From NCBI RefSeq assembly GCF_003018255.1, contig NZ_CP027440.1: a stretch of DNA of 64,000 bases. The stretch is one strand, 5' to 3'. Positions 52,801-58,800 of this stretch are shown here, piece by piece. The DNA is from Escherichia coli (lineage in GTDB: Bacteria > Pseudomonadota > Gammaproteobacteria > Enterobacterales > Enterobacteriaceae). A program made the position numbers. The first letter of the stretch is position 1; every line of letters starts with the position of its first letter.

Positions 52801-55800
52801 GCGGTGGCTGTCAGTGCCACCAGCGACCCGGAGTATTACTTTGTTGTGGTTCTGGCAGGGCAGTCAAACGGCATGTCGTATGGTGAAGGTCTTCCGCTGC
52901 CGGAGACATATGACCGTCCGGACCCGCGTATTAAGCAGCTGGCGCGCCGCAGTACGGTGACACCGGGCGGTGCCGCCTGTAAGTATAACGACATCATTCC
53001 GGCAGACCATTGTCTGCATGATGTGCAGGACATGAGCCGTCTTAACCATCCGAAAGCGGACCTGTCAAAAGGGCAGTACGGAACCGTGGGGCAGGGGCTG
53101 CATATCGCCAAAAAACTGCTGCCGTTTATACCGGCGAATGCGGGCATTCTGCTGGTTCCGTGCTGTCGTGGTGGTTCAGCGTTCACCACCGGAGCTGATG
53201 GCACATACAGTGACGCGAGTGGTGCCTCGGAGAATTCAACCCGCTGGGGTGTGGGCAAGCCGCTGTATAAGGACCTTATCGGTCGAACAAAAGCAGCACT
53301 GAAGAAGAACCCGAAAAATGTGCTGTTTACCGTGGTGTGGATGCAGGGGGAATTTGATTTTGGCGGTACGCCGGTAAATCACGCAGCACAGTTTGGTGCG
53401 CTGGTTGATAAATTCCGTGCAGACCTGGCGGATATGGCAGGTCAGTGCGTTGGTGGCTCTGCTGGCGGTGTTCCCTGGATATGCGGGGACACGACGTATT
53501 TCTGGAAGCAGAAGAACGAATCCACGTACCAGACGGTGTACGGCAGCTATAAAAACAAAACGAAAAAGAATATCCATTTCGTACCGTTCATGACGGATGA
53601 GAACGGGGTGAATGTGCCGACGAACAAACCGGAAGAAGACCCGGACATTCCGGGTATCGGGTATTACGGTTCGAAATGGCGTGACAGCTCAGCCACCTGG
53701 ACATCACAGGACAGGGCGAGCCATTTCAGCACCTGGGCACGCCGGGGGATTATTTCCGACCGTCTGGCAACGGCGATTCTGATTCATGCGGGACGAACCA
53801 CAGTAAAAGTCGATGCTCCATCTTCTGAAACTGGCGCACCGACGCCATCACCGTCAGAAAATGAAGCGGTAAGCACAACAACACTGCTGTCTTACCGTGC
53901 CAGTGAGTCTGAAGGGCGGCTGACCGAACAGGGCTGGAGTGCTGGCGGAGGTAAAGCGGAAATTGTTGCCGATGAAGGTGCAACAGGTGGTACCGCGATG
54001 AAGCTGAGCAAGGAGACAGGAGTGGGGTCATGGTATCTGGAGCATGATGCCGGTACTGGCGCTGAACTGCTGAAAAATGGCGGTTTAATCAGCTGCCGCT
54101 TTAAGGCATCCGGTGAACTGGTAGCAAATCAGTATGTCATTGCACTTTACTGGCCGGTTTCCTCTCTGCCGCAGGGTGTCACCCTGACAGGGGATGCAGG
54201 GAATAATCTGCTGGCAGCGTTCTACATCCAGACAGATGCAAAAGACCTGAATGTGATGTACCACAATGCGAAAGTGGCGACAAACAACCTGAAACTGGGA
54301 AGCTTTGGCGCATTTGATAACGAATGGCATACGCTGGCTTTCCGTTTTGCAGGAAATAACAGCCTTCAGGTGACGCCGGTTATTGATGGTCAGGATGGTA
54401 CACCGTTCACGCTGACGCAGTCACCGGTCAGTGCCTTTGCGGCGGATAAACTGCATGTGACAGACATTACCAAAGGTGCGACTTACCCGGTACTGATAGA
54501 CAGCATTACGGTGGAAGTGAACAACGCGGACACTGCGGCATGATAAAAAAAGCCGCCAGCGACAGGAATGGACACTGGCGGTGGTAATATCCATGGAGAA
54601 AAAATAAAGGAACGATACTTTCGTGCTCTGATTTTTTTAAATGAAAACAGTTCTTATTGTCAACAATAACGGAAAGAAATTATGACATTTCTGAACCAGT
54701 TAATGCTGTACTTCTGTACGGTGGTCTGTGTGCTGTATCTCCTTTCGGGCGGATACCGGGCCATGCGTGACTTCTGGCGCAGACAGATTGACAAAAGGGC
54801 CGCTGAGAAAATCAGCGCCAGTCAGTCAGCCGGAAGCAAACCCGAAGAGCCGCTCATTTAGCGGCAACTTTCTTAATCACATCTTTCGACGAGAAAATCC
54901 CATGTCAGAAATTACATCCCTGGTCACTGCTGAAGCAGTGAAGGAGGTCCTGCGCTCTGAAGAAGTCCGGAGCGCACTGAAACAGAAACTTCGCCATAAC
55001 CTGGAAGCGCGTCTTGATGCAGAAGTGGATGCCATTCTGGATGAACTGCTGGGCGCACCGGCAGCTCCGGAGCCGGAAGGCATCGCGGGTGAGGGGAGTG
55101 CTTCAGATAGCGGTGACCCCACACCTGACAGCGACATGATGATGTAAGCATGCGTCAGGGACCATCGGTGTGTGCCGGTGGTCTTTTTTATTGTTGTGAG
55201 CTTCCGGATTGCGGGAGGCAGGGTATGTACCAGATGGAAAAAATCACAACAGGTGTGTCATACACCACGTCAGCGGTGGGAACGGGCTACTGGTTCCTGC
55301 AGTTGCTGGACAAAGTCTCCCCGTCTCAGTGGGCGGCAATAGGCGTGCTGGGGAGTCTGCTGTTTGGGCTGCTGACATATCTGACGAACCTGTATTTCAA
55401 AATTAAAGAAGACCGGCGTAAGGCGGCGCGGGGAGAGTAGACGATGAATAAACAATACGAACTGGTTGTTAAAGGGATAAATAATTACCCGGATAAGATT
55501 ACTGTTACTGTGGCGCTGGAAACGGGTGGGTATACGTCACTGTTGTTGCCAAATGTGGTGATTGATCTTGATCGTGTTGAAGGTGCCCCGCTGGAGTTTT
55601 ACGAAGCTGAGGCGAAAAAGAAGGCGAAGCAGTTTTTCATGGATATTGCTGCCGGGTTATGTGAAGGGAACGAACCGTTGCCGGAAAAGCGCCTCTGTTC
55701 AGAAGAGCGGTATACCATACAAATTAACAATGCATATAACACGATACAGTCAGAAAAAGATGATATCGAATCACGCATTGAAAAACTGGAGAACAGCGTC

Positions 55801-58800
55801 GTTGAACTGAATAAAAAACTGTCGGTGCAGATCCCTTCCGAAGGTGAAAAAAAACGCCGTGATGAGCAGTTCGCGGCGTTTTACGATTATTGCCGGAAAG
55901 TGATGAGCAGAAATCTCGCAGAGTGTTTCCGTATTCAAAAAAACAGAGAGCGCTCTGCAAATAGTGAGATTCTGGATAATTTTTTAAAGGGGACGCATCT
56001 CGCCAGTGATTGTTTCATTGCTCATTCTTTTGGTGGCTTTCATGAGGCCATCAAACATGATGTTGAGAGAAGTCCAGGTATCCTCTGTTCCATTCCCGTA
56101 AGCATCGAAATAGACACAAATACGATAACCGGTGAACTCGTTACCGCCGGAGTCGGTATATTCCGTCATGAGGGGAACGATGCCAAAGGTTCCTTTACAA
56201 AAATCGGGCCGTTCTTTCTGAAGGTAGAGCGATAGTTTGTTAAGTACCCATCCGACAGCTCGCTCATTTTGGTTTATTTTCGTATCGCGAAACAAAAATT
56301 CGAAGCGGCCAGATGACGCATGGGTGCAACCAAATACCGGGGCGTATTCATCAACCTTTGGCGTTCCTGAAAACATGCAGTCCGTGCTCTCGAATGCAGA
56401 TGAATTGCTGTTGATCCACTTAACAAAAGAAAAAAAGGTCTGAATCGCTTGTCTGTCTGAATATTCAACAAAATCCTCAAGGTGTGTCTCGATCAGTTCC
56501 GGGTGTTTACGAAAGTCATAATATTGACCGGGACGATATTTATGAGTGGTTGTTTTATCCCATGGTTGTGCTCTGCGTCCCTGTAAACGGAGGTCTGCCG
56601 CTGGATAGATAAGCATAAGTAATCTCCTGGTGGAATGTAATCCACGATCATCCGGGGAAATTAAGAACCCGCCAGAGCCCACCACTGGTGGGGTGAAGGC
56701 TTAACATATCCAGGGATTCGGAACCGATAAATCCTGATAAATATCCATGAACACAAAAATCAAATACGGCCTGTCGGCTGCCGTTCTGGCGCTGATTGCC
56801 GCAGGGGCGCCTGCGCCTGATATTCTCGACCAGTTTCTGGATGAAAAAGAAGGTAACCACACCACGGCATACCGTGATGGTGCGGGTATCTGGACCATTT
56901 GTCGTGGTGCCACCAGGGTGGATGGCAAACCTGTCGTCCCGGGCATGAAGTTGTCGAAGAAAAAATGCGACCAGGTTAACGCCATTGAGCGTGATAAGGC
57001 GCTGGCATGGGTGGAGAAAAACATCCGGGTGCCACTGACTGAACCCCAGAAAGCGGGGATCGCGTCATTCTGCCCGTATAACATTGGCCCCGGTAAGTGT
57101 TTCCCGTCGACGTTTTATAAACGAATTAATGCAGGCGATCGCAGGGGAGCGTGTGAAGCGATTCGCTGGTGGATTAAGGACGGTGGCAGAGACTGCCGTA
57201 TCCGCTCAAACAACTGTTACGGCCAGATATCCCGTCGTGACCAGGAGAGCGCGCTGGCGTGCTGGGGAATCGACAGATAAGCAGAATATTTTGCTGAAAA
57301 ATGACGTTGGCCAACGCGGACGGATAACACGAAATCCTGCGAACTGGCAAAACCTAAGTGAATAAAAGTAAAAACCCCGTTTGTTGGCAGCAAGCGGGGT
57401 TTTGTGTTTCTGACCTTGGATAAGGCAAGGGAGAACATGGAAAAGTATAAACGAATTCTGTTGAGGTTGACTATGAAAAACGGCCCTGAACTGAAAGCGC
57501 CAGTAAGTGATGACATCAGCAGAGCGCTGGCTTTTGCTATTAAGTGGGTGGCGGTTGGTATCGCTGTGTCTCCGATACTGTATGGGCTGGCAAAACTGGT
57601 CATTGCGTTGAAATCGTGAAGGGAGGATTAAACATGTCAGACAAACTCATAATGCTGGCGAAGATCCTCTGTGTAATCGTCGGCATTTCATTTTCACTAA
57701 TGCTGGTTGCTCTTTTTCTTTCCATGGGCTGGATGATGTTGTCTTCGTCGGGGCTGCTGGAGTGAGCATAAACCGAATGCTTTCCGCGTTTACCGTTATT
57801 CTGCTGGTGGTCTGTGGTGCGCTTAGTCTGGGGCTGAATCATTACCGCGATAACGCCATCACCTACAAAGCGCAGCGCGATAAAAAAGCCAGAGAGCTGG
57901 AGCAGGCAAACGCAACCATTACTGATATGCAGGTGCGCCAGCGCGATGTTGCTGCGCTCGATGCAAAATACTCGAGGGAATTAGCCGATGCGAGAGCTGA
58001 AAATGAAACTCTGCGTGCTGATGTTGCCGCTGGTCGTAAGCGCCTGCGGATCAACGCCACCTGCTCCGGTACCGTGCGTGAAGCCACCGGCACCTCCGGC
58101 GTGGGCAATGATGCCGCCGTCGAACTCTCTCCGGTTGCTGGACGAAACGTTCTCGGTATCAGAGACGGAATCATCAGCGACCAGGCTGCATTGAGAATGC
58201 TTCAGGAATATATCCGCACTCAGTGTATTAACTAGTATTTTTGTTATCCGGAGAATGCATGAAGAAATTACTGGTAACCGTAAAGCCTTTTCAGGGAACA
58301 ATTCCGTTCCGTATTTTGCAGCGTGGTCGTGTTCTTGTTGAAGGTTCGTTCAGTGGTAAATGTACGCAATTACACTCCCGGACCTTTCAGGTGAATGCCA
58401 CGAATGAAGAGCTAACCGTTGAGTGTACGATGAATGCCGCTAAATGCCGTATGGTATCGGCTGCATTACAGCCAGTGTGTTGAGCGACCTTATTATCCAT
58501 GCGCGGTATTGTCGCCGTATTCCCGTATTAACAGAGACCGCAGCCCGACAGGGAGACTCCTCTGCGCGAGTGTGCGGGGATAATCAAAAACGATACACAC
58601 CGGGGTTTACCGCGTTAACGGAGCGCGGCGTTGTCCCCTCATAGTCGCCTGTCCGGTGCGATGGCGGAAGAAACTGGATTTGTTGCAACTGATAACCATT
58701 ATCATTTTCTCGGGTCCTTTCCGGCATATGGACCCGTTACGGGGCGGCGACCTCGCGCGTTTTCACTATTTATGAGATTTTTTGAGGGGGGTGGTTGTTG

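Follow-up and report, generated by a model that had tools for sequence, protein, structure and literature searches.

A putative moron of Escherichia coli prophages in which a small gene appears to be nested antisense within the 3' third of a 210-codon gene

The DNA analysed here is a window of 64,000 nucleotides from Escherichia coli (assembly GCF_003018255.1, contig NZ_CP027440.1), within which the lysis region of a Shiga-toxin-type prophage separates the stop of the holin gene (S) from the start of the endolysin gene (R) by 1306 bp. Two convergent, overlapping open reading frames (ORFs) occupy this interval, as a preliminary description of the same DNA had noted, one of 263 amino acids (aa) on the plus strand and one of 210 aa on the minus strand, sharing 252 bp. 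Comparison with related prophages makes it very probable that most of the interval is a mobile cassette composed of the 210-aa gene (here the big gene) and a second gene nested antisense within it (here the small gene), which in this window is joined in frame to a late gene of the YdfR/DUF1327 family. The features of the locus, in window coordinates, are the following.

55225-55440, plus strand: class II (S21-type) holin gene with stop TAG, the upstream neighbour, outside the cassette (from the ORF list and the sequence).
55444-56235, plus strand: chimeric late-strand ORF of 263 aa, a YdfR/DUF1327-family part and the small gene of the cassette joined in frame.
55444-55938, plus strand: YdfR-family part (aa 1-165 of the plus ORF), with the DUF1327 domain at 55444-55731 followed by a coiled-coil/'RRDEQFAAFYDYC' module.
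55939-56235, plus strand: small gene segment (aa 166-263 of the plus ORF), antisense within the last 83 codons of the big gene and here without a start of its own.
55941-56740, no strand assigned: mobile cassette, a moron-like insertion of 800 bp, delimited by the homology breaks against loci L014 and L015 and by the composition profile.
55943-55958, minus strand: weak terminator-like hairpin and T-run, 26 nt past the stop of the big gene at the left edge of the cassette (consensus scan).
55984-56616, minus strand: big gene, 210 aa, with ATG at 56616-56614, stop at 55986-55984 and the Shine-Dalgarno (SD) sequence AGGAGA at 56623-56628.
55984-56235, both strands: apparent dual-coding overlap of 252 bp, with codons in exact register.
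56617-56746, minus strand: 5' flanking region of the big gene and presumed site of its promoter; its sub-segment 56671-56740 recurs at S-R loci with other antisense cargo.
56747-57280, plus strand: R, lysozyme/signal-arrest-release (SAR) endolysin gene, the downstream neighbour, outside the cassette (ORF list; lysozyme in RefSeq).

The plus ORF begins with an ATG at 55444, 3 bases past the holin stop and preceded by GGAGAG, and ends with the stop codon at 56233-56235. The minus ORF has its own AGGAGA, spaced 6 nt from the ATG, and runs antisense to late transcription; in both respects the preliminary description was accurate. An alternative GTG at 56685 would extend the big protein to 233 aa, and all homologues use the ATG instead. 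Because the two frames are codon-aligned, a stop on one strand corresponds to a TTA, CTA or TCA codon on the other. The holin is labelled a class II holin family protein at 55225-55440 in the 100% identical RefSeq record NZ_CP027584. The 263-aa ORF is hypothetical in a DDBJ Shiga toxin (Stx) 1 phage record that omits the minus gene, and neither the 11 full-length RefSeq E. coli rows shown nor the Stx phage record LC567819 bears any annotation for the 210-aa gene.

The limits of the cassette are given by comparison loci L014 and L015, in which a 287-aa YdfR-family gene is followed 36 nt on by R. The window is 98.4% identical to these loci at the DNA level up to position 55940, and homology is found again from 56741, so that the cassette is delimited as 55941-56740, or 800 bp. 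The earlier estimate of about 1.3 kb interposed between S and R is thus correct for the distance between the two genes and too large for the insertion itself. GC content is 0.42-0.48 in the cassette versus 0.50-0.58 in its flanks. No terminal repeats or target duplications of note flank it, and an Rfam scan of 55000-57400 gave no match. Aligned in this manner, the cassette is seen to have taken the place of the 3' end of a late gene of the YdfR/DUF1327 family sited between holin and R.

The identity of that late gene follows from domain and position. Residues 1-96 of the plus ORF match Pfam DUF1327 (PF07041) with E = 5.5e-35 (model positions 1-90 of 93), and phrog_2091 (183 aa) is covered over its full length by residues 1-168. 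Most of the E. coli records listed, including K-12 Qin, as well as phages 86 and BP-4795 and further annotated loci, carry a YdfR-family gene between a class II holin gene and a lysozyme gene, so the expectation of the preliminary description that R normally follows S directly does not apply to lysis cassettes of this type. Judged by protein comparison, the N-terminal part of the plus ORF is therefore a common YdfR/DUF1327-family late gene, placed as usual after a class II holin and before lysozyme, with an unusual end. In the protein alignment (A2) the canonical family members end near residue 172, whereas the window parts from them past residue 165 or so and continues for another 98 residues, and the C-terminus '...NFVKxFEExKSLQ' (the '...KSLQ' ending of the YdfR-long subfamily) is absent. 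Past residue 166 or so the plus ORF differs from the family in having a 98-residue segment that is antisense to another gene and whose stand-alone homologues adjoin tail genes with no YdfR nearby. The statement that neither protein was recognisable consequently stands for the big protein and fails for residues 1 to about 165 of the plus ORF, with residues from about 166 to 263 belonging to the small gene of the cassette.

The big gene is, on comparative grounds, a real coding gene under purifying selection. Full-length homologues with 53-65% identity occur in Salmonella and in metagenomes, the family comprises 227 clusters at 50% identity (E <= 0.001), mostly of 200-215 aa, and pN (the proportion of nonsynonymous differences) is about 0.2-0.45 in this frame against a pS (synonymous) of about 0.5-0.95. 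AlphaFold2, run on an alignment of 103 sequences, returned a model with a mean predicted local distance difference test score (pLDDT) of 95.3 and a predicted TM-score of 0.91, with a compact alpha/beta fold that includes the C-terminal third. The protein is taken to be soluble, neither a signal peptide nor a membrane segment being apparent from the sequence. Near-invariant residues (at least 90% in the alignment of 103 sequences, A1) include R15, P18, P39, E47, D48, N69, E76, D79, R104, R110 and N115, and W19 is invariant among the 16 closest relatives. The protein, its family alignment and ten members gave no match in searches of Pfam, PHROGs, NCBIfam or PADLOC. The family profile retrieved only chance matches among sequences of solved structures in the PDB (E = 0.64), and fold searches with the model retrieved uncharacterised relatives only from AFDB50 and nothing reaching a TM of 0.4 from BFVD.

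Relatives outside prophages are found in Acidobacteria, Myxococcota, Verrucomicrobia and marine gamma-proteobacteria, among mixed non-phage neighbours that include GroEL, fumarase, a Ser/Thr kinase and, in one case two genes off, a candidate defence gene (PDC-S31); these neighbours suggest no function.

The evidence for a second coding frame comes from comparison of relatives. The preliminary description held that both frames stay open by more than chance; in the window alone the support is borderline, a synonymous shuffle of Leu/Ser codons giving P = 0.05 for the open antisense stretch, but the claim is borne out by 16 non-redundant big-gene homologues (below 80% aa identity). Among the Leu/Ser codons of these genes, TTA, CTA or TCA account for 85 of 291 in the first two-thirds versus 3 of 186 in the last 80 codons (Fisher P = 3e-17). 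All three exceptions belong to L003, a degraded prophage remnant and the only locus of the prophage clade without the small ORF, so that the frame is open in 15 of the 16. Start signals recur along with the open frame. Five loci with 38-54% identity to the window (L008, L009, L016, L017 and L019) have an in-frame ATG 3-11 codons past the stop of the big gene, following AGGAG, GAGG, GGAGG, AGGGG or AAGGA; L034 shows a similar arrangement with the ATG 20 codons past the stop, and SD and ATG are also seen in L037 and L041. In IMG/VR, the 3' end of each of the 30 distinct homologues is open in antisense for 82-96 codons, with 2-13 antisense stops elsewhere in each gene, an ATG lies 3-12 codons past the big stop in 29 of them, and an SD-like motif precedes that ATG in 27.

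The antisense peptide itself carries a signal. Its identity among relatives exceeds that expected from whole-gene synonymous shuffles in the overlap (mean z 3.1) and not in a control region at the head of the gene (0.3), and shuffling within regions over 105 pairs gave mean z values of 2.1 and 0.2, respectively; since the head control is near zero, shared ancestry at synonymous sites does not account for this signal. In the overlap A is scarcer and C more frequent at third positions of big-gene codons, so that first positions of the small frame are rich in G and poor in T, a shift that is missing in L003 and L006. Synonymous divergence drops near codon 120-130 of the big gene, and pN does not. 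In the first approximately 10 codons of the small ORF, which do not overlap, pN/pS is about 0.5 and variability decreases in the order of codon positions 3, 1 and 2. Small ORFs have been called as proteins of 89-116 aa in public data, an example being an 89-aa protein on 69 contigs of Enterobacter asburiae, and damage to the big gene by a frameshift (L039), by an insertion sequence (IS) that splits it (L040) or by loss of residues 16-96 (L037) has left the small ORF intact. In L040 (5378-6540), an E. asburiae prophage, the IS element carries an rve-family transposase and cuts the big gene at about codon 114.

Taken together, the data from about 40 related prophages indicate that each frame codes for a protein and that the small gene, of some 90-105 aa in relatives, lies with all but its first 3-21 codons antisense within the last approximately 83 codons of the big gene. 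In low-GC environmental relatives outside prophages the antisense frame contains stops. The small gene is probably specific to the prophage clade and overprinted on an older big gene, and it is taken as the younger of the two because the C-terminal third of the big protein belongs to the confidently predicted fold and is present in environmental relatives with antisense stops. The small protein has no match in Pfam or PHROGs.

Some findings weigh against a second coding frame. PGAP annotates 55444-55692 of the identical record as an incomplete DUF1327 pseudogene and places no feature on the minus strand, AlphaFold gave an uninformative model of the small protein (pLDDT 59 from a 7-sequence alignment), and synonymous-site conservation in the overlap could stem in part from constraint at the RNA level. 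Ordinary (Nei-Gojobori) pN/pS of the antisense frame is about 0.7-1.0, near neutral. The pseudogene annotation, the weak model, the near-neutral pN/pS and the borderline value in the window are what would be expected if only the 210-aa gene were real and the plus ORF were an insertion-truncated YdfR gene, open through the insert because a codon-aligned antisense frame often lacks stops. This explanation was at first favoured, on the pN/pS near 1, and was dropped on the SD and ATG of relatives and the tests conditioned on the sense frame. We now regard it as very unlikely, given a frame that is open in nearly all relatives, start signals that recur at the expected place in independent lineages, a peptide conserved past its shuffle null in the overlap only, a coding pattern in the non-overlapping codons and a small ORF that outlasts decay of the big gene at three loci.

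It might also be that the act of translation matters and the peptide does not, with ribosomes shielding the late mRNA from pairing, RNase III and Rho polarity so that downstream R or J is expressed. Conservation of SD, ATG and stop avoidance would follow from such a role, as would a small peptide that is poorly predicted and highly variable among subfamilies and an ORF that is always co-directional with the surrounding late genes. The role does not predict a peptide conserved beyond shuffle expectation or the pN/pS of about 0.5 in the non-overlapping start, and of the 800 nt of the cassette the ORF spans no more than about 250. Moreover, Q-modified late transcription resists termination in lambda and would be expected to do so here, and we consider this explanation improbable.

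If the small gene is coding, its form in the window is particular. The closest stand-alone small proteins (75-84% identity) begin 'MGHNNDKSRVRLVNSEALDKFLKG', and in L037 this start stands behind the strong SD AGGAGGGG, 98 nt past the stop of a complete gene of the YdfR-long type. The window instead reads '...CFRIQKNRERSANSEILDNFLKG...', with small-gene homology from about K166 (55939); the first approximately 6 small-gene codons and the SD have been lost, the frame is continuous with the YdfR-family gene, and the C-terminal 98 aa of the plus ORF match stand-alone proteins of 89-104 aa. The predicted product is accordingly a YdfR(1-165)::small(7-104) fusion, which would belong to the late transcript because its start lies 3 bases past the holin stop. 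[quoted passage not shown]

A separate in-frame fusion of a YdfR-like coiled-coil module with the small gene, at another junction, is seen in P0209 (178 aa). This second, independent fusion hints at a functional link between the two parts.

As to distribution, 131 of 5426 complete E. coli genomes carry the full-length cassette with at least 99.5% identity, in every case on the chromosome; among 50,697 phage records it is present in 8, each of them a Stx1a or Stx2a phage of one accession series. The module is thus rare at the S-R position and not a feature found there in most Stx phages, and that it is uncharacterised agrees with the preliminary description. It is found behind at least three variants of the YdfR N-terminus, giving ORFs of 263, 305 and 161 aa.

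The 161-aa form is that of L010 (Stx2_14040, 1845-2330), where the YdfR part is cut in three Stx2a phages: 354 nt are swapped in frame for 48 unrelated nt and the small-gene part is retained.

Homologues of the big gene are spread over many other prophage positions. Some are inserted between tail genes I and J (L009, L016, L041 and L077, among others). In L094 the site is between K and I, as it probably is in L079 and L082, whose only identified neighbour is a K-like gene. Further copies lie next to a tape-measure gene (L099), upstream of other types of holin (L037, and L006 beside a Kiwa system) and, in L003, close to sodC in a prophage remnant. A cI-like repressor gene precedes the big gene by 27 nt on the same strand in L034 and by about 1.1 kb in L087; a position downstream of the cI repressor is that of rexAB in lambda.

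Cargo of other kinds accompanies some of these copies. In L006 (9618-11257), a Salmonella P22-like prophage, the big-gene homologue is about 3 kb from Kiwa KwaA/KwaB in a cargo region between Q and holin. L037 has a gene for an Rce1-like (CPBP-type) membrane protease just downstream of Q (749-1465), in the same prophage as its degraded cassette with the intact small gene.

As homologues occupy so many different prophage sites, the cassette is best seen as mobile cargo for which a role specific to lysis is unlikely. Control of lysis timing through effects of the inserted genes on holin and endolysin, as entertained in the preliminary description, would suit the S-R position and a plus ORF starting immediately past the holin stop. 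The occurrence of the same cassette among tail genes, by a tape-measure gene, beside repressors and ahead of holins of unrelated types argues the other way, as does the common presence in the S-R slot of a YdfR-family gene together with some other antisense cargo gene, and we find such control highly improbable. A defence or lysogenic-conversion role, the other suggestion made there, is plausible.

The variety of that cargo can be seen at several loci where the slot is made up of a YdfR-family gene, a small minus-strand gene and R, among them L011 (PhiR12_1, 1758-2475), L012 (phage 86, 1769-2899) and L013 (1845-2975); in PhiR12_1 the YdfR-family and minus-strand genes overlap by 53 bp. About 70 bp upstream of R (56671-56746) are common to S-R loci with different minus-strand cargo, namely DUF1823 in PhiR12_1 and a 104-aa hypothetical protein in phage 86 and strain B1.H1.39, and homology between the window and L011-L013 resumes at 56670/56671. 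A related segment occurs in L037 upstream of the unrelated holin. The S-R slot looks like a general cargo hotspot, and the shared segment might serve the different antisense cargo genes as a promoter or 5' region, or else be a recombination joint.

By its insertion between genes that are adjacent in related phages, its composition and the presence of the same cargo at multiple sites, the cassette behaves like a moron, and possibly one that provides defence with self-immunity. Classical morons in the definition of Juhala et al. 2000 include HK97 gp15 and lambda bor and lom. Like these, the cassette is a discrete, lower-GC insertion between otherwise adjacent genes, at sites that differ among phages. 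It departs from them in having a second gene nested on the opposite strand, in having remodelled a late gene into a fusion, and in that a promoter and terminator of its own are not demonstrable by consensus.

Orientation offers a clue to function. At prophage loci the big gene is antisense to the tail or lysis genes, or just downstream of a repressor, and the small gene is co-directional with the late genes, a rule read from the window together with the tail-operon and lysis-region loci with identified neighbours. We propose, tentatively and by analogy with known systems, that the big protein is an anti-phage factor of the lysogen and the small protein a late antidote. The big protein would be made in the lysogen from its own promoter and would benefit it, most plausibly as an anti-phage or exclusion factor. 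Upon induction, Q-antiterminated late transcription would pass through the cassette, interfere with convergent expression of the big gene and also yield the small protein, here as the YdfR fusion, which would neutralise the big protein and allow the prophage to finish its own lytic cycle, that is, self-immunity. With the antidote nested in the gene that it counters, recombination could not part the pair. Expression in the lysogen and self-immunity would be in keeping with the orientation rule, the repressor-adjacent copies, and the absence of the small gene only from a dead prophage and from relatives outside phages. As a whole, the account that combines the anatomy with this mechanism has in our estimate about an even chance of being correct, and the mechanism by itself somewhat less than that.

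Two prophage systems provide the analogy. The Tab/anti-Tab pair of Pseudomonas phage JBD26 is, in the portions available of the paper describing it, a minus-strand cargo gene in a late operon, expressed from its own promoter in the prophage, accompanied by a plus-strand gene close behind a late gene whose lytic-cycle product shields the phage against that defence; Tab, a protein of 83 residues, is encoded between the terminase genes, and the only overlap described there is one of 1 bp between atab and the small terminase gene (PMC10884400). For that pair the logic proposed here has been demonstrated by experiment. The cassette has the identical orientation, with cargo antisense to the late operon and a partner on the late strand. 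It differs in that no sequence relation is known, the partner lies antisense within the cargo gene itself, and many different sites hold the cassette. For BstA, the immunity determinant aba lies within the bstA locus and is inseparable from it, and it consists of DNA that acts as such, unlike an antisense gene that codes for a protein. BstA is reported as a prophage-encoded defence with cognate self-immunity (PMC8585504). The likeness to the cassette is that of a prophage locus with possible defence and self-immunity, and there is no sequence similarity, the window proteins and ten family members giving no PADLOC match.

Against the proposed mechanism stand several results. No sigma-70 consensus promoter was found in 55300-57000, including upstream of the big gene, where the best manual candidate agrees at 7 of 12 positions, and the minus-strand hairpin and T-run at 55958-55943 is weak and of a kind no more numerous than in shuffled sequence. 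Both window proteins and ten family members had no match in PADLOC-DB 2.0.0 at E <= 0.1, and the genome contexts of environmental relatives are mixed, with no clear defence islands. In L034 and L087 the small ORF lies outside the late operon, so that the logic of a late antidote is not obviously applicable, and in L087 it has no SD.

Other functions for the pair were weighed against these data. An addiction module of the toxin-antitoxin kind, stabilising the prophage, would agree with two tightly linked genes that recombination cannot separate, with one homologue that adjoins a Panacea (SocA) antitoxin-domain gene and with loci that keep just one partner intact. However, the genes are convergent and form no co-transcribed operon as in type II systems, no toxin-antitoxin model of PADLOC or NCBIfam matches, and the big gene occurs by itself in L003 and many environmental relatives, as does the small gene in L037, L039 and L040. 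Since each occurs without the other, neither product seems obligately toxic alone, and an addiction module has little probability. The big gene could instead be a lysogenic-conversion factor acting on host physiology, stress or virulence and not in defence, with the small gene an independent late accessory gene. The moron-like position and antisense orientation, Salmonella homologues beside sodC and other conversion-type cargo, and a family widespread in free-living bacteria near metabolic genes would all suit this. It leaves unexplained a late-strand partner conserved only in prophage copies, and the big protein has no signal peptide or membrane segment that would suggest a surface or virulence role; it deserves consideration as an unlikely alternative.

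With respect to other cases of two proteins from one stretch of DNA, the nearest in place is Rz/Rz1 of the lysis cassette, where the embedded gene also is apparently the younger but, unlike here, is on the same strand. The antisense overlapping genes of enterohaemorrhagic E. coli (EHEC), nog1, laoB, asa and pop, are supported mainly by expression data from single strains. The present pair is like them in its coding capacity and differs in that support comes from conservation across about 40 divergent loci. In bacteria and phages, few conserved protein genes nested antisense in other genes are known, and such cases are disputed. No description of the nested antisense pair, as an architecture or as a module, was found in the literature and libraries searched, which is not proof of its being undescribed.

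Outside the cassette, the genes upstream of the holin are customary late cargo of Stx phages: a 9-O-acetyl sialic acid esterase of the SASA family (nanS-p type, 52606-54543), a DUF1378 protein (54682-54861) and a DUF826 protein (54902-55147). Upstream of the esterase gene, at about 52100-52362 on the minus strand, RefSeq places in the identical genome an anti-adapter IraM pseudogene with an internal stop. Between R and an Rz-like gene are two small plus-strand ORFs coding for hypothetical proteins (57437-57619 and 57634-57765, 60 and 43 aa in RefSeq), in the slot that is the site of the antirepressor gene (ant) in other Stx phages.

The case is a good one in which to examine antisense nested genes, as it is backed by about 40 divergent prophages and not by expression in a single strain. 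It also exposes a blind spot of annotation, the big gene being unannotated in the records examined and the small gene usually missed because gene callers disallow such overlaps. It is conceivable, though we hold it as doubtful, that the cassette represents a new type of prophage defence, in which an antidote gene is overprinted antisense in the 3' third of the defence gene, cannot be separated from it by recombination and is expressed reciprocally with it by convergent transcription. Under that reading, and with no greater assurance, the antidote of the Stx phages would be the C-terminal domain of a YdfR-like protein, and the binding of RNase E reported for K-12 YdfR would tie self-immunity to the lysis cassette. 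If defence in the lysogen and a late antidote are indeed what the two genes provide, the cassette would be a third architecture of prophage self-immunity, present in the Shiga toxin phages of pathogenic E. coli.

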